DNA from: a virus | Taxonomy: Duplodnaviria > Heunggongvirae > Uroviricota > Caudoviricetes | DNA length: 37,859 nt | Reading direction: 5' to 3' (one strand) | Virus record (IMG/VR): IMGVR_UViG_3300026484_000284 | Coordinates: 64,001-101,859 of that record | Part shown: piece by piece, positions 4,389-33,811 of the stretch | How the letters are laid out: every line of letters begins with the position of its first letter | Position numbering within the stretch: position 1 is the first letter of the stretch | The notes under the pieces: generated by a model | The model's input: the letters and a program-made list of their open reading frames with translations, nothing else | Database searches by the model: none | What the model was told of the DNA's origin: nothing | Translations under genes and position numbers: made by a program

Positions 4389-6218
4389 TTAAGAAACAAG
4401 TTCTAATAATAGTCCCATTTCTGGGTTTCTTAAATCTAACACTCTTGTTTCTTCATCTTCTTCAATCTCTTCAAGTTCTAAGTCGTTGAAATATAGATAT
4501 GAGTCAAGTTGTCTTCTTAACATATCTTCTACCCCTAATGGATCTTGTCCTGAAACTTGTGTCATTTTATTGTTTGCTAAAAAATAAAATGTATCACTAT
4601 CAATAATACCAATCGTTTCTTCTCTATCTTTAGGTTTGATGTTTGTCTCGAAAACTATTTGACTCTTCTCTAACATTCTGTTATTGACTATATCTTCAGC
4701 ATCACCTATGAAAAATTTGTAATTCAAATCAGGATGAGTTCCAGTATATAGATTCACCTTAACATTAAACAAATTTTTTGTTTTGAATTTCAATAATTCT
4801 GTTGCTCCATTTGGTCTTGGTGCATTTGTAATATCTCCTGAATAAGTGGCATTACCTGTCCAATTACTATTCCACCCGATTTTGGCAACACTATTTGTGG
4901 CACTTAAATCCAAATCAACCCTACTCGATAAAGTATCTTCTAAGTCAAGATTGAACCAATGAATTCCTACAACAGGATTATTGCTTATTTCAATTTTACT
5001 TCCAAAAGGAAAATTACCTACAAACTTTTTACCACTCTCAGGTAATGCGACTTTTATGTTACTATCAAACCCTATGATTTTGATATTACTTTCTTTAAGT
5101 TTTTTGTTTAACTTTTTAGAAAGTCTTTTGATGATAACTTTTTTAACCATTTTAAGATATTCATTGCTTACTTTTTTGTTATAACTGTCTAAAAATGTTT
5201 TACCATTTCTAACTTGATATTGTATCAAGTCGCCATCATTTGTTAGAAGTCTTGTATTAACTGCTCTATAAAGTTTTAAAATGTAACTAATATCCATTTC
5301 TTTAATGATTGACTTGATTTCACTTTTTGAATGTTCTTTAGAAGTTACCATTAAATATTCTGCTGTTTTAACAGGTTTATGGTATTTTTTAGATAATCTT
5401 GAAATTTTGTTTATAATACTTCTATTATATAAGTTTTTCATCATTACAAAAATTTCTTTATATCTATTGAAAATTTCAGCAAAGGGTTTATAACCATATA
5501 ACTCGATATGTCTTTCAAGGTCATTTGAAAAATCTTTTCTCGACACTAACTCTTGGAATTCTATATTTTTAACAAATGGCATTTGATATCTGTTAGCAAT
5601 CATTCTGAAGAAGTCTTCACCTTTTGCAGGAATACCTACTTTGTCTAATACCGACATTTTTAAGTCTTTGCTACCGATATCCCATTTTTGAATTAGATTG
5701 TATTTATCTTTAATTGAACCCTCAATCTTTTCAGATAAAATATCAGCAATTTCATATACTAAATCATTATCTAATGCGATGTTTTGTCTAATAACTTGAA
5801 ATAGTTTTTCAAAAAATTCATTTTCACTCATTACTTCGATTGTTTTAATCTCATAACCATTTAAGAATTCTACAACACCTTCATCCTCTTCAAAATCCGT
5901 GGGTTTTACTCCTGTCAAGTAATGGAGAATTTGATAAAATATTCTTGTTCCTTCAACTTCACTATTGACAACATCTTCCCATCTTCTAAAAAATGTTTCT
6001 TTCAACTCATTATTTGAAATATAATACTTTGAAACAACATCAAAAGCAGCACTTAAACATTTATCGCTCATTCCTGAAAAATCAAAATAAACACCTTTTG
6101 AGAATAAATCCATAGAATATCTTTGTAAATTCTTTTCTTTTAAGTCTGTTTCGTCATCCTTAACTAAACCATTAAACAATTTCATTGCTACATTTTGTTT
6201 TATCATACAATTTTTCAT
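4389..6218 (-). CDS. Large early protein with C-terminal TerD-like region, 609 aa
   Basis: RVDLDLSA...IGWN...YSGDITNAP..GATE resembles TerD DLDLS / SGD motifs (recalled). Confidence 0.5.
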   Translation of the reverse strand: MKNCMIKQNVAMKLFNGLVKDDETDLKEKNLQRYSMDLFSKGVYFDFSGMSDKCLSAAFDVVSKYYISNNELKETFFRRWEDVVNSEVEGTRIFYQILHYLTGVKPTDFEEDEGVVEFLNGYEIKTIEVMSENEFFEKLFQVIRQNIALDNDLVYEIADILSEKIEGSIKDKYNLIQKWDIGSKDLKMSVLDKVGIPAKGEDFFRMIANRYQMPFVKNIEFQELVSRKDFSNDLERHIELYGYKPFAEIFNRYKEIFVMMKNLYNRSIINKISRLSKKYHKPVKTAEYLMVTSKEHSKSEIKSIIKEMDISYILKLYRAVNTRLLTNDGDLIQYQVRNGKTFLDSYNKKVSNEYLKMVKKVIIKRLSKKLNKKLKESNIKIIGFDSNIKVALPESGKKFVGNFPFGSKIEISNNPVVGIHWFNLDLEDTLSSRVDLDLSATNSVAKIGWNSNWTGNATYSGDITNAPRPNGATELLKFKTKNLFNVKVNLYTGTHPDLNYKFFIGDAEDIVNNRMLEKSQIVFETNIKPKDREETIGIIDSDTFYFLANNKMTQVSGQDPLGVEDMLRRQLDSYLYFNDLELEEIEEDEETRVLDLRNPEMGLLLELVS

Positions 6219-11436: not shown

Positions 11437-12789
11437 TCAATTTAATTCTTTAGCACTTTCTTCAATTTCAAAACATTCATTCAATGTATTTGATGTATCC
11501 TTATCTTCTCTAACTTCTATAAATCTTGGATGTAAAACACTATAAGTTCCATTTGAATTTTCACTTATCCCAGAACATTTAATAGTTACCACTTTACCAA
11601 CTAAACTATCTTTATTCTCCGTTAAGTAATTCATCATTGCTTCAGGAATACCACCAGCAGTAGTTTTTAATTTTCCATCTGCTGTTTCACATACAATTCT
11701 ATTAACAAAATTTTCATATTTTGTTCCGGAATTTCCATTTAATAAATCGGTTATGATGAGGTCTAATTCAATTTCTAATTTGAACTTCATTTGACTATTA
11801 GGTTTTCCGTCTTCCCAAACACTATCAGTATCTTTCAAAATGATACCTTCTTCTCCATTGTCTTTTGCTTCTAAATAACTATTCATAATTTCTTCATAAG
11901 TTGAAACCTCTTTATATTCAACTAAACCAATTTTAGAATTGATTTTATGGAATTCAATTAAATCTTTTCTTCTTTCATATAAAGGTTTTTCATATCTACC
12001 TTCTTGCCATTTATCAAGTGGTATAATATCCCAAGCAACCATATGAATTTTATTAAGTGCTTCGTTAGGAGTAATATCATAATTTTTTATAAAATTTTCA
12101 ACATCTTTTTGTCTTGAACCTTTTTCTATAAGTTGTTTTAATGAATTCACTAACCCATTAGCAATATATCTATGAAAACCTTCAACCAATATCTCACCTG
12201 TAACTACAAGATTTTTTGATTCAATTCCTTCAAATGCTTTTTCTAAAAATAATTTTTTACCACTTCTCGCAAGTGTTTCAACTCTTCCGTTCTCATCAAA
12301 AATCAAATTACAAAATAATCCATCATATTTTATTTCTGAATATAATTTTTTACCAATCATTTTTTGTAGTTTTTTCTTATTGAAACTTATCGCACCCATA
12401 TAATTGATAGTAGGTATTAAATTTTTATAAACTTTATTTATAAGTTTAGTGTTTATACCAACCTTCATATCTTTTGCTAAAATTTTGTCAAGCACTATCG
12501 CATCTCTCTCATTTAATTTACTTCTTAAAATAGTTACCATATCAATTGCTGCATTACCTGTAACTTCTCTATTTCTTAACTTGTCTAAATAGTCGAATAC
12601 TGCTTCAAGTTGGAACTCTCCTGAAAAACTTTTACCCTTTGGGTACTTTTTAATGTTAAAGGTATAAAATGGATTGTAAGTGTAAAATAACACTTTTCTA
12701 AATAATTCATTATCATTTTCTTTTAACATAACTTGCTTTTGATTAGTTGAATTTTCACCTTTTAATTTTTCTAAAATTGATAATATCAT
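11437..12789 (-). CDS. gp30: ATP-dependent DNA ligase (T4 gp30-like)
   Basis: EIKYDG motif I, TGEI motif III, EEGIILKD motif IV, MKFK motif V, LHPRFIEVREDK motif VI. Confidence 0.95.
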   Translation of the reverse strand: MILSILEKLKGENSTNQKQVMLKENDNELFRKVLFYTYNPFYTFNIKKYPKGKSFSGEFQLEAVFDYLDKLRNREVTGNAAIDMVTILRSKLNERDAIVLDKILAKDMKVGINTKLINKVYKNLIPTINYMGAISFNKKKLQKMIGKKLYSEIKYDGLFCNLIFDENGRVETLARSGKKLFLEKAFEGIESKNLVVTGEILVEGFHRYIANGLVNSLKQLIEKGSRQKDVENFIKNYDITPNEALNKIHMVAWDIIPLDKWQEGRYEKPLYERRKDLIEFHKINSKIGLVEYKEVSTYEEIMNSYLEAKDNGEEGIILKDTDSVWEDGKPNSQMKFKLEIELDLIITDLLNGNSGTKYENFVNRIVCETADGKLKTTAGGIPEAMMNYLTENKDSLVGKVVTIKCSGISENSNGTYSVLHPRFIEVREDKDTSNTLNECFEIEESAKELN

Positions 12790-20587: not shown

Positions 20588-21343
20588 TTAAAATATATCC
20601 AACTCCATTATAGGAGTGTCAGCATTTCCATCGCATAAATTATGCTCAAAATAAGGACACCAATTACAAAATGTATCCTTCTTAGGAAAAGATTTTGTAG
20701 TTTCAATGGTATTTATAACCTTTTTAACTTCATCTTGAATTTTTTGTTTTTCTGATTTATCAAATTCAAATATTATATTCTTATTATGCTCAATAAATTC
20801 AAAATAAAGTTTTGCTTTTCCAGCAGGAAATAATGATAATGCCACAAGATAATAAATATACAATTGGATCTTATCTTGATTTTCATTAAATCTCCCTGTT
20901 TTGTGGTCTGTAATATAAACAATTTTTTCGTTTTTATCATAATACATTAAATCTATGAACCCTATTATATCAGACTCATAATTGTAATCTTTCACTTCTA
21001 AGGTATCAATATCAAGTCCAAACCCCATTTCTATAAATAATTCATTTCTTGATTTATAGTCTTGAATAGTATTGTTTTTTAAAATTTTTTTAAGTTGCTT
21101 AAATAACATTGACTTTTCTTCGCCTTGATAAACCTTAAATTCAAAATCAGCAATTTTTTTGATTTCGTCTTTCAAATAAAGTTCTATTCCTTTATGTAAA
21201 AATGACCCCTTTTCTAAACTCCTATTCATTACGAATGGAGTTTTGATTTTATCAATGTATTGGAGTTTGAACCTATGAGGACAATTCTTATAGGTGTTTA
21301 TTTTTGAATAACTATAAGGCGAAAATTTTAAGTCCATTTTCAT
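20588..21343 (-). CDS. Cas4/RecB-like PD-(D/E)xK exonuclease with Fe-S cysteines
   Basis: SYSKINTYKNCP...H...E...GFIDL...DHKTG...QL..Y...CNWCPYFEHNLC. Confidence 0.85.
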   Translation of the reverse strand: MKMDLKFSPYSYSKINTYKNCPHRFKLQYIDKIKTPFVMNRSLEKGSFLHKGIELYLKDEIKKIADFEFKVYQGEEKSMLFKQLKKILKNNTIQDYKSRNELFIEMGFGLDIDTLEVKDYNYESDIIGFIDLMYYDKNEKIVYITDHKTGRFNENQDKIQLYIYYLVALSLFPAGKAKLYFEFIEHNKNIIFEFDKSEKQKIQDEVKKVINTIETTKSFPKKDTFCNWCPYFEHNLCDGNADTPIMELDIF

Positions 21344-23802: not shown

Positions 23803-25059
23803 TTATTCAAAATCTCCAAAATCAAAATCCCCACTCGATTCTTCAAACTTCAAATCACCTGCTGAGTCTTCAGGTACCCCAAAACTCGCATTTAATTGAC
23901 TTGTCAAATCCGGTAAATTATTGTTATCTACCTCATTAACTTTTTGATTCATTTGTTTAATTCCTGCTTGCTCATCAACGATACCTTTAAAGGCCATCCT
24001 TGAAAAATCAACTTCTAATAAAACCTTTTCAAGTTTCCCCGTGTATCTATTTTTGTCTGCTTTTAATATAATTTGCTTTTGCTGTCTCAATTCTTCATTC
24101 GATAACATACTTGCGGCAAAATCTGCTGTAGCAATAACACCGATTGACTCTGAAATGTTCTCCATTCCTGCTTCCGTATTGTTATAAGAACTTCTATTCA
24201 TTTGCGAACTTGAAATTATTATAATATCGTTTTGTTTTGCAAACCCGTGCAATTCTTCTGCTATACTTTTAAAATATGTATAAGAACCTTGACTTAATTT
24301 TGCTCTCGTTGATTTCATTAGGTTAAGATAATCAACCACGATATAATCCAACTTGATATTATGCTCATTTTCAATCTCATCTTTTAGGAATTGTAAATCA
24401 AATACACTAAAACCTCCAGCAGGATATTCCTTTACAAAAAATTTACCTGTGTAATCTTTAACTTTATCATATTTTGCCTTATACACTTCCCAACTCATAT
24501 TGTCGAATTCGTGTAGTTGAGTGTAAAGTAGATTAGCATCAAATCTTTTTAGTATTTCTGCTTCTTCCATTTCAAGTGAAACATATAAACCATTTTTCTT
24601 CTGTAAAGACATACCTGCAGCAGTTGCTATTTTTAGTGCCGTGTTATGATGTAAAATTCCATTAGCATCATAATATAAATGTGGTGCATCTAATGATAAA
24701 CCATATAAAAACTCATCTGTATTTTCTTTTATATTTAAGTGTTTAATTTTAACTAATCCTTCAACTGTTTCTAAATAATCTCCAACTTTTAAATCTTTAG
24801 CATAAATAATGTTTCCATTTATTACGAACCTGTGATTTAATGAAACCACAACTTCAATTCCGTTTTCAAGTGTAACTTCAACCCAATCCTCAGGTGTTTT
24901 TTTAACTAATTGTCTAATAGGCACAATACCATCTGGAGATTCAATATAACACTCATATTTTAAATCTGAAAATATATCACACTCATAACTCTCTTCTAAA
25001 AATTCATTGAATTCAAATAATTCACTTATTTCCATTGTTATTTTTTTTAAATCACTCAT
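23803..25059 (-). CDS. gp41: Replicative helicase gp41, C-terminal half preceded by a 139-aa IntC
   Basis: ...GILHHN|TALK..YVSLEM..IVVDYLNLM..SSQMNR..ISESIG..KNRY DnaB-family motifs. Confidence 0.9.
   Translation of the reverse strand: MSDLKKITMEISELFEFNEFLEESYECDIFSDLKYECYIESPDGIVPIRQLVKKTPEDWVEVTLENGIEVVVSLNHRFVINGNIIYAKDLKVGDYLETVEGLVKIKHLNIKENTDEFLYGLSLDAPHLYYDANGILHHNTALKIATAAGMSLQKKNGLYVSLEMEEAEILKRFDANLLYTQLHEFDNMSWEVYKAKYDKVKDYTGKFFVKEYPAGGFSVFDLQFLKDEIENEHNIKLDYIVVDYLNLMKSTRAKLSQGSYTYFKSIAEELHGFAKQNDIIIISSSQMNRSSYNNTEAGMENISESIGVIATADFAASMLSNEELRQQKQIILKADKNRYTGKLEKVLLEVDFSRMAFKGIVDEQAGIKQMNQKVNEVDNNNLPDLTSQLNASFGVPEDSAGDLKFEESSGDFDFGDFE
24643..25059 (-). mobile_element. Split intein C-fragment of gp41 (139 aa)
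   Basis: SLNH block B, AKDLKVGD, LYGLSL block F, HHN/T block G. Confidence 0.9.
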
Positions 25060-25175
25060 TATTTTCTCCTTTAAGTGTCCCTATTATATTAAAATACTTT
25101 ATAAATTTAATGTTATGTTTTTCAATAGTTTTTTTGAATTTATAATTTTTTATTATAAACATCTTTATCCATTAA

Positions 25176-25206
25176 AAAAGAAATAGATTTCAGGTCTATT
25201 TCTTTT
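25176..25206 (-). terminator. Intrinsic terminator-like hairpin between the two gp41 halves
   Basis: 12-bp perfect stem AAAAGAAATAGA/TCTATTTCTTTT with a 7-nt loop; ends in a U run on the minus strand; stem is AU-rich. Confidence 0.6.
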
Positions 25207-25225
25207 ATGTATGTTATGCTTTTTT

Positions 25226-25933
25226 TTAAGAATTCAATTTTTTATTTCTTTTCCACTCTTCGAACTTTTTTCGTGTTTTTTCATCTACATATATATTCAA
25301 TTTTGTATCTTTTCTTAAACATTTACCTCCGTGCGATGGCGCCAAAAATAAATTTAATGTTTTACTTCTGAAACCACCACCTAATAAATCGTCAAGAACA
25401 TTTATTCCAGTTGAAATTTTTCTAAATTCTTCTTGATATTTTTTAAATCTATTTTCCAAGTCATTATGGAACTCTAAACCTAAATCCGTATCAAAATTAT
25501 AATTTAGTGCCTTTTCAAATTTTACGATTATATCATTTTCAATATCGTCTTTTTGTTTTAATTCATCGACACTTTCCAAGATAGCATCCATCAATGAAAT
25601 CTTTTTTAAGTGCCTTTGAGTGAATTGTATTAAAAAGTCAAAATTTTTTATATCTTGCTCATTTTTTAATTCTGTTTTAATGTAATTAAAAACATTCTGT
25701 TTTAAATTTTTGTCTAATCCACTTTCCATAACAAAAAGCGCCAATTCTTTAATTGACGGAGATTTCTCAAATTTTTTATGAAATTTTTCAATATATTGAT
25801 ATATCGTCTTAGTTTCAACTTTTTTAAAATTATTGCCTTCTAATTTTGAAAATACTCTGGCAAAATAAGCAGGATTCTTCATAAGGTGAAAAATTATAAT
25901 TTTTTCTCCATCGAGATTGTCTAATTCATTCAT
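25226..25933 (-). CDS. gp41: Replicative helicase gp41, N-terminal half followed by a 31-aa IntN
   Basis: FDTDLGLEF..RFKKY..ISTGINVLDDLLGGG..KTLNLFLAPSHGGK|CLRKDT. Confidence 0.9.
   Translation of the reverse strand: MNELDNLDGEKIIIFHLMKNPAYFARVFSKLEGNNFKKVETKTIYQYIEKFHKKFEKSPSIKELALFVMESGLDKNLKQNVFNYIKTELKNEQDIKNFDFLIQFTQRHLKKISLMDAILESVDELKQKDDIENDIIVKFEKALNYNFDTDLGLEFHNDLENRFKKYQEEFRKISTGINVLDDLLGGGFRSKTLNLFLAPSHGGKCLRKDTKLNIYVDEKTRKKFEEWKRNKKLNS
25229..25321 (-). mobile_element. Split intein N-fragment of gp41 (31 aa)
   Basis: Block A CLRKDTKLNIYVD directly after the Walker A lysine, then a stop. Confidence 0.85.
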
Positions 25934-25992
25934 ATTGTTTCTCCTTTAAATATATTAAAAATGATTGTATTTGTATTTATAGTCATAATATA

Positions 25993-26022
25993 ATTATAAT
26001 ATAATTGAAATTTAAAATTAAC
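25993..26022 (-). promoter_or_regulatory. Class II promoter GTTAATT-N17-TATAAT upstream of gp41-N
   Basis: -10 at 25998-25993, GTTAATT at 26022-26016. Confidence 0.65.
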
Positions 26023-28316: not shown

Positions 28317-29468
28317 TCAATATACCGACATCAATTTTAATAAAAATGCCATTAAAGTAATTTCTTTGTTTTTAGCAATTTTATCCATTTCTTGATACCT
28401 TGCCAATTCCCCAACTATCCCAGGTTGTTTTTGTGCTGGTAAAAATTCGTCCATTTTTTTCCAAAACCAAGTGTAAAAATTTGAAGGGTTATTGAGTAAC
28501 ATAACCATTCCTCTTGTCGTACTATAATTTTTTTCTTTAACTTTTTCCATTAAGTCGGTAAAAATATCATCTACATCCAAATTTTGGAGTTTTAGTTTTC
28601 CATTGACTACATTATCTTGTAATGAAATTGTCATATTTCTCATAGAAGGATAGTGCTTTTTAACTATTTCACCTATATCCTTTTTATCGTACTCAACACC
28701 TTCAATTTCGCAAATATCTATAAGTCTTTTATACATTTTTTTGGCAATTTCGTTTTTATGTTCTTGAAAAATAATATCAAAATCAAAAACAATAAATCTA
28801 CTCAATAAAGGTTCTATGAATCTATCTTTATAGTTTCCTGTTAGAAAAAATCTAACATTACCAGCATATTGCTCAATCACTCCCCTTAAAATATCTTGTG
28901 CTCCTGCACTTCCTTGACTTGAAGTCGTTAGGTTATCTGCTTCGTCTAAAACCAATAGTTTTCTTTTACCTTGTGCTGACATAGTACTTGCAAAACTCAC
29001 GATTTCATTTCTAATGGTCGAAACCGAATTATCCTGAGAAGCATTTATCCATTTTACATCTGAATCTAACTCGTGAATTAAAGCATTTAACATACTTCCC
29101 TTACCTGTATTATGAGATGAAACTTCATTTAGGAAGTATTGGTGCTTTTCACTATCAACAGTTAAGTCATAAACCGGTTTCACTTCATTTGTTTCTTCAA
29201 TAAATAAAACCTCAATAATTCCTTTTTCACTTAAAATTTCTTGACCTATTTTTAAATCTTTTGAATAAACCCATCCGTTTTCAATTTCAAAAAGATGATT
29301 TTCGGCGACCTCCATAAAGTCAAGTTCTTCATTATATTCATAATATACTATAATAGTTTTCTCTTTTTTTGTTACGGATGCTATAACATTTTCAAATCCT
29401 GTATCTGTTTTAATTTTTAAAGTTGAATTATTGAAATAATAATCCAAATTTTTTACATCAATTAACAT
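28317..29468 (-). CDS. gp44: Clamp loader large subunit gp44, C-terminal part preceded by a 120-aa IntC
   Basis: VSSHN|TGKGS...INAS...LVLDEADNL...QDILRGVIE...TGNY...LLSRF RFC motifs. Confidence 0.92.
   Translation of the reverse strand: MLIDVKNLDYYFNNSTLKIKTDTGFENVIASVTKKEKTIIVYYEYNEELDFMEVAENHLFEIENGWVYSKDLKIGQEILSEKGIIEVLFIEETNEVKPVYDLTVDSEKHQYFLNEVSSHNTGKGSMLNALIHELDSDVKWINASQDNSVSTIRNEIVSFASTMSAQGKRKLLVLDEADNLTTSSQGSAGAQDILRGVIEQYAGNVRFFLTGNYKDRFIEPLLSRFIVFDFDIIFQEHKNEIAKKMYKRLIDICEIEGVEYDKKDIGEIVKKHYPSMRNMTISLQDNVVNGKLKLQNLDVDDIFTDLMEKVKEKNYSTTRGMVMLLNNPSNFYTWFWKKMDEFLPAQKQPGIVGELARYQEMDKIAKNKEITLMAFLLKLMSVY
29109..29468 (-). mobile_element. Split intein C-fragment of gp44 (120 aa)
   Basis: KIKTDTGF, AENH block B, VYDLTV block F, SHN/T block G; own AAGGAG RBS. 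Confidence 0.9.
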
Positions 29469-30187
29469 TTTATCTCCTTAATAAATTTTTCAAATTCTTG
29501 TGGTAACAAAATAATGGCACCAAATTTGAATTCTTTGTAAATCATTTTAGCATCATATTCATAATTACCTTTCAAACCAGCAATTTCTATATACATATTT
29601 TTTGAAGGAATATAAAAATCACATCGCATTCTTGAATTAGTATAATGTTTTTCCAATTCAAATTTTATATCATTTTCTTTCAATAAATCATAAAAATTTA
29701 TTTCATAACTACTTCTCAATAAACCTTCACTGACTTTTTTTGTATATCCATATCTTGATTTATGATTTTCAATGGGATTATATAAAACCCCAATCTTATT
29801 TTCAATATCACTTTTAAAAAATTTTATGGGCTTAATAAATTCTTTAGGCACCACGAAATTACAATAATTTTTATATTTTTCAACATAAAAATCAATATAA
29901 CTATTTTTTGAAGAATATTTTTTGAGAATTATATCATTTAATTGTTTGTTTTTTGAAATTGATTCTTTCGTATATTTTTTTAAATAACATTCACAATATT
30001 CTTCAAAATCCTTCGAATAAGTCCAATCCATTTTTATTCTATCAAAGTATTTTTGAATCGTGCTTCTGTTTTGTAATGATTCTTTCCATTTGTTTTGTCT
30101 TGACTTCCAAATCTGAAACGCCACACCAATAGGATATTTTTTAATTAGTTTTTCAAGTGAAAAGGTTGTTTGTCTTTCTTTCAACAT
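29462..30187 (-). CDS. Homing-endonuclease-like PD-(D/E)xK (Vsr/DUF559-type) protein between the gp44 halves; frame open upstream to 30268
   Basis: LRSSYE...RCDFYIP...YIEIAG; location inside a fractured gene. Confidence 0.7.
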   Translation of the reverse strand: MLKERQTTFSLEKLIKKYPIGVAFQIWKSRQNKWKESLQNRSTIQKYFDRIKMDWTYSKDFEEYCECYLKKYTKESISKNKQLNDIILKKYSSKNSYIDFYVEKYKNYCNFVVPKEFIKPIKFFKSDIENKIGVLYNPIENHKSRYGYTKKVSEGLLRSSYEINFYDLLKENDIKFELEKHYTNSRMRCDFYIPSKNMYIEIAGLKGNYEYDAKMIYKEFKFGAIILLPQEFEKFIKEIKC

Positions 30188-30263
30188 TTTTTTAGCAGTT
30201 CCCTCATCATATCCTTTTTCTAAATAGTATTCAATTCTTGTCGTAAAAGTTTTTTTATATTTT

Positions 30264-30279
30264 TCAGGGGTGTTCCTTT
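30264..30279 (-). other. Candidate +1 ribosomal frameshift cassette AAAGGAA-CAC-CCC-TGA
   Basis: The +1 frame continues PEKYKKTFTTRIEYYLEKGYDEGTAKK without a stop into the endonuclease ORF. Confidence 0.5.
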
Positions 30280-30998
30280 ACTAACTTTGATTTGATTTTC
30301 CCGTTTTTTGATTGTATCATAAATACTTGTTTTTGTGCTTCTTCAATACTAAATCCTCTATTAACCCAAAATGAAACGGTTGAAGGTTGCTGCTTTTCAA
30401 AAAAATCCATCTCTTTATTGTCAATAATCGCTTTTCTAAGTTTTAATAAAGTAACTTTTCCGTCTATATTTTGTTTAAAATTCAAATCTTTAAAATCATT
30501 CTCAAAGTATTTTTTTCTTCTTCTAATTCTTTTAGTTGTCTCGACTGCTTCTTCAAAAGTTTTAAAATTTAACCAATAAATGAATTTAGGATATTTACTT
30601 TTGAATTTCTTATCTTCTTTAATTAAATTTATTATACGACTTTTATTTTTATCCCAATTTTCTGAAATTTTTTTATATGCTATTTCATTTACTTCAAAAG
30701 TATCTTTTGAAACTTCATAGGTTAAGTTTTCAAATAATGTTTTTGATTTTAACAACGGGAATTTCTTCAATAATTCTTTTTTATGTAAAGAATCAACTCT
30801 AACTTCCACATTATTACCTTCAACACTACACCCTGGAGTGCTACTTACAAACATAATATTCGGAATATTACTTTTATCTATATACTCTTGAAATTTTTCC
30901 ATAAGATAATCTGGTAAAACCACATCCTTTAATCTTTGGGGGCGATATTTCTCAACCCATAAGTCGTTAAACTTTTCATTATACACTAAATCTGGCAT
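30264..30998 (-). CDS. gp44: Clamp loader gp44 N-terminal 56 aa, IntN, and endonuclease-associated tail
   Basis: LWVEKYRPQRLKDVVLP RFC box; SSTPG|CSVEGN intein start in Walker A. Confidence 0.9.
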   Translation of the reverse strand: MPDLVYNEKFNDLWVEKYRPQRLKDVVLPDYLMEKFQEYIDKSNIPNIMFVSSTPGCSVEGNNVEVRVDSLHKKELLKKFPLLKSKTLFENLTYEVSKDTFEVNEIAYKKISENWDKNKSRIINLIKEDKKFKSKYPKFIYWLNFKTFEEAVETTKRIRRRKKYFENDFKDLNFKQNIDGKVTLLKLRKAIIDNKEMDFFEKQQPSTVSFWVNRGFSIEEAQKQVFMIQSKNGKIKSKLVKEHP

Positions 30999-32125: not shown

Positions 32126-33811
32126 CTAATTTTTTACGATTTTACTATAACCCTTATTTTCAATTGTATAAATCTTATTGAAAATATCTTTATTTTTTAT
32201 ATCTTTATTATGGGTTATAAGAATTATCTCTTTTTCTATAAAATTTTTATGCAATAATTCCAGAATTTCATCAACACCATCCTCATCTAAACTGCCATTT
32301 ATGAACTCATCTAAAAATAATATATTAAATGAAATTTTACTTTTTATTTCACTCAATTTCAAAAAAGCAAATAAAATAGCAATTATAACTCTCATTTTTT
32401 GTCCATTACTTAATGAGTTGAAACTATAATCTTTATTCCTATATATGATTCTTTCTTTGAAAAATTTATCTAAAATAAAATTATAAGACATTCCTAATTT
32501 TTCTAAATATAAATTTATGTGATAATTCAAAATTGGTATCTGCTCATCTATCAACTCACCTTTAAGGTTATCTTCACTTAACAAGATTTCAAGTTCTTTT
32601 AGGTCATTTATTTTTTGTGATAAATCGATATATTCATCTTTAAATTTTTTTAACGATTCTTTTTTCTCATCGATTAGTAAAGTATTTACCTCAATTTCTT
32701 TAAGATTTTTTATTTCATTTATTTTATTTTTTAAATCTATTATCTTTTTTTCTGCTTCAATTTGTTTAAATTGTTCCATTTTCAACTCAGAAATTTTATG
32801 TTTTTCAACATCAATATCTCTTAAAATGATTTCAAGATTTTTTTCAAAAGAAGATATATCCTCTTTTATCTTTTTAGCAGTTTCAACTTCATTTTTATAA
32901 TCAAAATCAAATTTTGCCATTATTTCGTTACCACATTTCTCGCAGATTATTTTTTCATTTTCTGCTTTTTTAAATGCCTTTATATTTATGATATGCTTTT
33001 GTATATTGTTTTTAAAACTTTTTAGTTGATTTTCAATCATACTTTTTCTAGATAGTAATTTTTCAAGTGTAGTATTATCAATTTCTATCTTTTTTTCTAG
33101 CAATTTTTCAAGTGTTTTAATTTCATTTTCATAATTAGAGATTAGTTCTTGTTTTTTATCAATTATTTCTTGCTTTTGTTTTTTTGCTTTATTATATTCA
33201 TTTTGTAAAGTTATAATATCACTTTTTAAAGTAGAAGTTTTAAACTCATTTTCTTTCATCAAGTCCTGAATATGTTTTTTATAGTTTTTAACTTTTTCTT
33301 TAATCTCGTTAAAAATAGAAGTATCTAAAAGTATTTGAAAAACTTGTTCTTTTTCTTTGGGGGATAATTCCATAAAATTTTTGCTATTAGTAACATTCGC
33401 TCCCAGATATAATAATTGCCCAAAAATCAATTCATTAAACCCAATCATTTCTTCGAATTTCTTCTGGTAATCTTTAGACTTAGCATCCAAGTCTAAAATT
33501 TTACCATTTACATATATTTCAAAAATGTTAGGTTTCATTCCTCTTTTAATAAAATATAAATCATCATTTATCATAAATTCAAGGGTAACTAATAATTTTT
33601 TACCTGCTGTGTCATTTATCATTTCTGCTAATTTAACTTTATTGAGTGATTTACCAAATAAAGCAAAGTATATTGCTGTCCCAATGGTTGATTTTCCTTG
33701 CCCATTTTTGCCTGACAATAAAGTCAATCCTGTCTCAGAAAATTCAATTGATTGTTCTTTTGAGTAAGACATAAAATTTTGTAGTGTCAATTTTTTGAAA
33801 TGAATTTTCAT
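32126..33811 (-). CDS. gp46: Recombination nuclease ATPase subunit (gp46, SbcC/Rad50-like)
   Basis: GKNGQGKST, coiled coil with CEKC zinc hook, LSNGQK signature, LFLDE, IILITH. Confidence 0.95.
   Translation of the reverse strand: MKIHFKKLTLQNFMSYSKEQSIEFSETGLTLLSGKNGQGKSTIGTAIYFALFGKSLNKVKLAEMINDTAGKKLLVTLEFMINDDLYFIKRGMKPNIFEIYVNGKILDLDAKSKDYQKKFEEMIGFNELIFGQLLYLGANVTNSKNFMELSPKEKEQVFQILLDTSIFNEIKEKVKNYKKHIQDLMKENEFKTSTLKSDIITLQNEYNKAKKQKQEIIDKKQELISNYENEIKTLEKLLEKKIEIDNTTLEKLLSRKSMIENQLKSFKNNIQKHIINIKAFKKAENEKIICEKCGNEIMAKFDFDYKNEVETAKKIKEDISSFEKNLEIILRDIDVEKHKISELKMEQFKQIEAEKKIIDLKNKINEIKNLKEIEVNTLLIDEKKESLKKFKDEYIDLSQKINDLKELEILLSEDNLKGELIDEQIPILNYHINLYLEKLGMSYNFILDKFFKERIIYRNKDYSFNSLSNGQKMRVIIAILFAFLKLSEIKSKISFNILFLDEFINGSLDEDGVDEILELLHKNFIEKEIILITHNKDIKNKDIFNKIYTIENKGYSKIVKN

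Follow-up and report, generated by a model that had tools for sequence, protein, structure and literature searches.

The window analysed here, a 37,859-nt stretch of DNA from an uncultured T4-like phage (IMG/VR record IMGVR_UViG_3300026484_000284, positions 64,001 to 101,859), carries the gene for the replicative helicase gp41 in two pieces on the minus strand, each of which also encodes one half of a split intein (Table 1). The upstream open reading frame (ORF), gp41-N, has DnaB N-terminal similarity (Pfam; the DnaB family is also called by NCBIfam), and its Walker A sequence, GGK, is followed directly by Cys1 of the N-terminal intein fragment (IntN), a residue conserved in five gp41 loci. 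The downstream ORF begins with the C-terminal intein fragment (IntC) and matches the Pfam domains Intein_splicing / PT-HINT and DnaB_C, with intein/HINT similarity over residues 7-139 (Pfam, NCBIfam) and a C-extein that aligns to T4 gp41 (8dtp, E = 2e-32). Among 16 homologues, His76, His138 and Asn139 of IntC are invariant, and His137 and Thr+1 nearly so. A preliminary description, made from the letters alone, had given this two-ORF anatomy accurately to the residue (GGK, a 31-residue IntN, a stop codon, and a separate IntC ORF with its own ribosome-binding site), and its assignment to the rare short-IntN class is likewise borne out by the length of IntN, the stop, the 166-nt spacer, and the ribosome-binding site and ATG of the second ORF; its proposal that splicing would restore Walker A as GGK-T finds support in a related gp41 sequence that reads through GGKT at that site. 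As the spacer is no multiple of three nucleotides, the break is neither a single stop codon nor open to simple read-through. Known short IntN fragments are 15-37 residues long and derive from either S1 splits, after strand beta2 (VidaL, 16 residues; PolB16, 15 residues), or S2 splits, after helix alpha1 (AceL-TerL, GOS-TerL) (PMC13014065).

Table 1. Features of the fractured gp41 locus, in window coordinates and in the order of transcription.
Feature	Position	Strand	Description
Promoter-like GTTAATT-N17-TATAAT	25993..26022	minus	Upstream of gp41-N; 5 matches in the window vs 0.18 expected
Shine-Dalgarno AAGGAG	25941..25946	minus	7 nt ahead of the gp41-N ATG
gp41-N ORF	25226-25933	minus	235 residues: 204 of extein and a 31-residue IntN, then stop
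gp41 N-extein	25322..25933	minus	204 codons; Walker A ...APSHGGK at the end; basis: ORF translation, DnaB similarity, match to the empty allele L002
IntN residues 1-13	25283..25321	minus	Cys1 and strands beta1-beta2; block A, CL..DT..
IntN residues 14-31 and stop codon	25226..25282	minus	Predicted basic amphipathic helix, net charge +5, at the S1 site
Spacer	25060..25225	minus	166 nt between the ORFs; hairpin inside; endonuclease gene or remnant not detected
Shine-Dalgarno AAGGAG	25066..25071	minus	6 nt ahead of the IntC ATG
IntC-gp41C ORF	23803-25059	minus	418 residues; residues 1-139 end ...GILHHN; residue 140 is Thr
IntC	24643..25059	minus	139 codons; alpha1 at residues 11-17 (model); block B His76; block G His137-His138-Asn139; net charge -15
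gp41 C-extein	23803..24642	minus	279 codons and stop; begins with Thr+1, the Walker A Thr

An empty allele proves the exact junction. The contig L002, a relative from IMG/VR with the same neighbouring genes, encodes one uninterrupted 484-residue gp41 that reads APSHGGKTALKIA at this point (...SHGGKTALKIA...), and is 97% identical to the N-extein (residues 1-204 of both) and 93% identical to the C-extein (residues 1-279 against 205-484 of L002). Its gp41 is continuous across K204-T205, and both DNA alignments abut there, leaving an insert in the window of exactly 679 bp (93 + 3 + 166 + 417). The intein was inserted precisely and in frame between Lys and Thr (GGK/T, the slash marking the insertion point here and in other extein sequences below), inside the Walker A motif of a replication ATPase. 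Nucleotide identity between the exteins of the two loci is 86-89%, and with dS at about 1, dN/dS is 0.024 for the N-extein and 0.033 for the C-extein; strong purifying selection therefore acts on both extein halves.

This split is also found in other phages. Three further loci in independent assemblies share it, with an IntN of 33 residues and a spacer of 338 nt (L003), an IntN of 28 residues and a spacer of 74 nt (L014), and an IntN of 30 residues (P0016), which with this window makes four independent metagenomic loci that break at one place. The gp41 ORFs P0005-P0009, which start with IntC and are 48-65% identical, begin at the same point as the window IntC, and a contiguous 643-residue gp41 (P0004) holds an intein at the identical GGK/C...HHN/T site. 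Scanning viral contigs with P0004 returned one partial locus only, and a degenerate DNA pattern, PHLYYDANGILHHNT, applied to viral and metagenome contigs, returned partial or known loci only, plus L014 and L015. In a wider census, phmmer with IntC as the query against 1.84 billion cluster representatives retrieved 277 clusters at E <= 1e-3, about 159 of which were scored. The largest share (69) begin no more than 9 residues from the start of this IntC, typically with M..I.I..LF, and lead into varied C-exteins (gp41, UvsW-like TITTA, TGKT P-loops); a separate class of 39 starts later, beyond alpha1, most of them with TerL-like exteins and Cys at +1; another 15 carry a short extension at the N-terminus, and the remaining 36 are internal or contiguous. 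With 69 of some 159 clusters at the same start, S1-type splitting is a frequent natural state of this intein lineage.

We estimate a probability of about 0.85 that the locus encodes a functional, naturally split class-1 intein (Cys1, Thr+1) between the Walker A Lys and Thr of gp41, whose reassembled halves splice in trans. The gene halves, arranged head to tail, would be co-transcribed from the promoter upstream of gp41-N, probably with some attenuation, and translation of each would start from a separate ribosome-binding site. The 31-residue IntN (beta1-beta2 and the basic helix) would then dock on the acidic 139-residue IntC (alpha1 and the rest of the HINT fold), and splicing of the reassembled intein would yield an intact GGKT P-loop. 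The arrangement may have originated by invasion of a free-standing homing endonuclease that was later lost.

Three points weigh against this reading. Twenty nucleotides past the gp41-N stop, the spacer contains a hairpin of 11 bp followed by a U-run (25177-25205; minimum free energy -19.7 kcal/mol, z = -2.5) that looks terminator-like, and the IntC ORF has no clear promoter: the GTTAATT-N17-TATAAT site does not occur in the spacer before it, and the T4 late-promoter motif TATAAATA, found upstream of gp41-N at 25981, was not found in the spacer. The stoichiometry of the two halves is uncertain for these reasons. Secondly, the proposed loss of an endonuclease is drawn by analogy, because no endonuclease remnant is detectable in the spacer, where neither endonuclease similarity nor a match to the 36-residue mini-ORF was found. 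The free-standing homing endonuclease gene that forms part of the fractured-gene definition of Dassa 2009 is thus missing, as it is from the published gp41-7 locus, which lacks the endonuclease and retains a hairpin before its C half; the same paper gives a model in which an endonuclease invades and is later lost (PMC2677866). Thirdly, the position of the IntN helix comes from a homologue model of moderate confidence (overall predicted local distance difference test score, pLDDT, of 63).

The first of these points also bears on the alternative that the gene is decaying, i.e. that a contiguous intein was broken by an indel or by endonuclease excision, that its halves no longer splice, and that the phage makes do with a different helicase or with pieces that assemble non-covalently. 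Such a state would fit a hairpin that ends transcription ahead of IntC, as well as the lower conservation of IntN (46-54% identity) than of IntC (51-73%), and trans-splicing is itself a deduction here. However, dN/dS is about 0.03 in both extein halves, the catalytic residues are all intact, and the split persists in loci where intein identity has fallen to 47-73%, every one of them with a start codon and a ribosome-binding site of its own. Moreover, Walker A is cut between its Lys and Thr, so ATPase activity needs ligation of the halves. We consider decay improbable, and a split intein that splices in trans by far the better account.

The position of the break was assessed from structural models. 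An AlphaFold2 model of IntC alone (pLDDT 80) shows a first helix at residues 11-17 followed by the strands of a HINT horseshoe fold, with Z = 9.1 to the TFIIB mini-intein 5o9j (131 aligned residues, rmsd 3.5), 8.7 to gp41-1, 7.6 to VidaL (6vgv residues 17-144 on IntC 1-139) and 6.0 to PolB16 (8cpn), and Z >= 6 for about 40 inteins. Model residues 3-6 overlie residues 11-15 in about 40 solved inteins, among them Npu DnaE and Ssp DnaB, and residues 1-6 align to canonical residues 11-17, counting VidaL and PolB16; the first IntC residue of VidaL (17) pairs with model residue 1, as does residue 15A of 8cpn, while the S2-type TerL consensus IntC (6dsl_B) aligns from model residue 23 only. For the N-terminal side we used a model of the contiguous P0004 (pLDDT 77-79 in the split region), which predicts, in intein numbering, a strand (7-12), a helix (14-27) and a low-confidence loop (28-36), followed by a further strand (37-41) and helix (42-48); the break in the window maps to loop 28-36. 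When N fragments and full-length proteins were aligned together with MAFFT, the IntN tails were smeared (A2) or L002 was misplaced (A3); the P0004 fold was built on A2, and is hence only moderately reliable.

These models place the break at S1, between beta2 and alpha1, so that alpha1 belongs to IntC, and C-terminal to a 14-residue helix that this intein lineage carries at S1. The location of alpha1 in IntC and the superposition on residues 11-15 argue for S1 rather than S2. The preliminary description had recognised a 'KI.I.EL' helix-alpha1 element at the start of IntC, which the model helix 11-17 and the structural alignment bear out, and had deduced from it a split even closer to the N-terminus. 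That deduction is not supported: the comparison with known split sites that it had itself proposed as a check arrives at the S1 position, already described for VidaL and PolB16, and the claim of novelty falls with it.

An S2 split like that of AceL-TerL and GOS-TerL would require that IntN helix 14-27 be alpha1 and that the first helix of IntC be a lineage-specific insertion. The IntN does end in a helix in the P0004 model, and its 31 residues are within the AceL/GOS range of 25-37. By eye, its FEEWKRN also resembles the EDLYKRL of AceL-TerL. Against this, the model of IntC alone can be superposed on about 40 inteins from their residue 11-15 onwards, its own helix 11-17 fills the alpha1 position by both model and structural alignment, and the 6dsl_B and VidaL pairings above follow the S1 pattern. 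In addition, the helix-less relatives P0062 and P0073 pass straight from beta2 to the 'K.T/M.I.ELF' element. The S2 assignment is in our view very unlikely, and the S1 assignment is retained below. An assembly or sequencing artefact in a truly continuous intein-containing gp41 ORF has next to no likelihood, since, even though the record is a metagenome-assembled viral contig and the continuous homologue P0004 exists, the break is no one-base error but 166 nt of inserted non-coding sequence, complete with hairpin, ribosome-binding site and ATG, and independent assemblies show equivalent breaks with spacers of other lengths (74 and 338 nt).

The 18 residues that follow beta2 in IntN deserve separate consideration, as the preliminary description had suggested a functional core of perhaps about 13 residues. 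That suggestion is weakened by the tail itself: residues 14-27 are a predicted helix, positions T16, K/R19, F/Y20, W23 and K24 are conserved in 5/5 gp41 loci, and among these P0004, though contiguous, has the same segment, which speaks against both a dispensable tail and a core of 13 residues. A similar beta2-plus-helix IntN is also present in the gp41 intein of the Vibrio phage vB_VmeM-32, in the intein that interrupts gp44 in this genome, and in contiguous inteins of UvsW-like helicases. The T16-F20-W23 spacing gives one hydrophobic face to an otherwise basic helix, and this face may pack on the intein core. The tail carries a net charge of +5, against -10 for the first 45 residues of IntC and -15 for the whole, a complementarity in keeping with the electrostatic pairing described in other split inteins (PMC2677866), and the helix and its charges could assist docking. 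The helix recurs in gp41, gp44 and UvsW-like P-loop inteins of this lineage, and is missing from VidaL and PolB16; relatives without it (P0062, P0073) exist, and in VidaL an IntN of 16 residues is enough for function. A tentative idea, which we think rather doubtful, is that it defines a distinct 'helix-assisted' S1 subclass that docks to a strongly acidic IntC and associates more tightly or faster than the 15-16-residue IntNs used at present, or else that it can be removed to leave a 13-residue IntN. If this were true and the helix removable, that IntN would be shorter than any characterised.

Among characterised inteins, VidaL (T4Lh-1; PDB 6VGV; Neugebauer 2017 and Burton 2020, as cited in PMC13014065) is close in design. 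Like the window intein, it is naturally split, Cys-dependent, located in a Walker A loop, and split at S1 after beta2, and its IntC starts with the strand-plus-alpha1 segment KKVTVQELRELY where the window IntC starts with KKITMEISELFE. Its host protein, as the name 'T4Lh' suggests, is likewise a T4-like replicative helicase. However, the VidaL IntN has 16 residues and no inserted helix, compared with 31 residues and a helix here, and its published construct has the exteins ESG/.../SGK with +1 Ser, 3 residues upstream in the P-loop of the GGK/T, +1 Thr site of the window. BLASTP of the first 60 VidaL IntC residues against the window IntC gave no alignment, and VidaL was absent from phmmer matches to solved structures at E <= 1, among which gp41-1 (6qaz, E = 1e-3) is the nearest solved intein by sequence. 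The two share architecture and host motif but differ in insertion point and lineage, and the link between them is architectural and structural only.

PolB16 OarG (PMC10189870; PDB 8CPN) resembles the window intein in its S1 split and very short IntN (15 residues), and differs in its cysteine-independent Ser1/Ser+1 chemistry, PolB host and 168-residue IntC. AceL-TerL, GOS-TerL and the Cat consensus (PDB 6DSL) are likewise natural short-IntN splits (25-37 residues) from phage-like metagenomic DNA; they differ in having an S2 split after alpha1, the terminase large subunit as host, and +1 Cys. Inteins gp41-1 to gp41-9 (Dassa 2009, PMC2677866) share the host family, the head-to-tail halves and the opposite charges of the pieces, but are canonically split (IntN 88-94 residues, IntC 37-50 residues), and gp41-1 to -7 are inserted at position 356 of P-SSM2 gp41, which differs from the window site. 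P-loops as such are a known intein hot spot, e.g. DnaB site b, MCM site a and RFC site a (PMC4760082).

A parallel in a cultured phage is provided by gp41 of vB_VmeM-32 (KU160494), with its P-loop location, short IntN (27 residues) with beta2 and helix (E.T...Y..F.K), and IntC starting from alpha1; tblastn matches it over window IntC residues 38-139 plus extein. It differs from the window in its insertion point (GVN/TGKS, 3 residues upstream, in the VidaL register), in the 378-residue free-standing endonuclease ORF that it keeps between the halves, and in the length of its IntC (117 residues). This fractured gp41 (L001, 1032-4107) is unannotated: it consists of a 232-residue N ORF, the endonuclease ORF, annotated 'hypothetical', and an unannotated 388-residue IntC-gp41C ORF. 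The uvsX region of the same phage is annotated with HintC adjoining a Seg-like endonuclease.

The window does contain an S1-type split intein, one that is almost certainly functional. The S1 kind of split is already known; what is distinctive is the new gp41 P-loop register, Thr+1, and the conserved extra helix that gives a 31-residue IntN. Semisynthesis of proteins and labelling in live cells both call for short-IntN split inteins, of which few have been characterised (VidaL, PolB16, AceL-TerL, GOS-TerL); to these the locus adds a Cys1/Thr+1 S1-split intein with a new gp41 P-loop register and an extra conserved IntN helix. Dozens of uncharacterised clusters begin at the same point, which makes this split site a common natural solution in phage replication ATPases and no rarity, and the current understanding of inteins is unchanged by these results. 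The phage would be unable to replicate without trans-splicing of its helicase and, it appears, of its clamp loader and polymerase as well.

The clamp-loader gene, gp44 (window 28317-30998, minus strand), is fractured in its P-loop too, reading ..SSTPG/C... and ...SSHN/TGKG, and its IntC and that of gp41 share 29% identity across residues 70-139. Its gp44-N/IntN ORF (30264-30998) extends by about 175 residues with FW..RG(F/Y)..EA repeats, as in the vB_VmeM-32 endonuclease, the ORF at 29462-30187 aligns colinearly with the latter half of this endonuclease, and IntC-gp44C occupies 28317-29468. The gp44 locus thus retains a related endonuclease ORF, apparently in broken form. Outside the window, the gp43 DNA polymerase gene of this genome (L006, G000:C1:11107-14421) is split after ..YQDTD, with a 13-residue Ser1 IntN, a 194-residue ORF between the halves, and a 448-residue IntC-gp43C ORF in which the intein ends ..LSHN/SGY, a PolB16-like arrangement.

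Related loci show further variation. The IntC ORF of L003 is extended N-terminally by about 43 residues (4875-5010), with no internal Met near the usual IntC start; this extension has a weak likeness to the C-terminus of the vB_VmeM-32 endonuclease (E = 0.22), and we do not claim it as an endonuclease remnant. UvsW-like superfamily 2 helicases (L015, 395-1637; P0010; P0011) carry this S1-split intein at GK/T and a second intein further downstream at the DEAD-box motif (VIVDE/C...), and the helicase is therefore encoded in three pieces. The other neighbours in the window are ordinary T4-like replication and repair genes, for a PD-(D/E)XK/Cas4-like nuclease (20588-21343), an ATP-dependent DNA ligase (11437-12789) and an SMC/gp46-like ATPase (32126-33811, minus strand).

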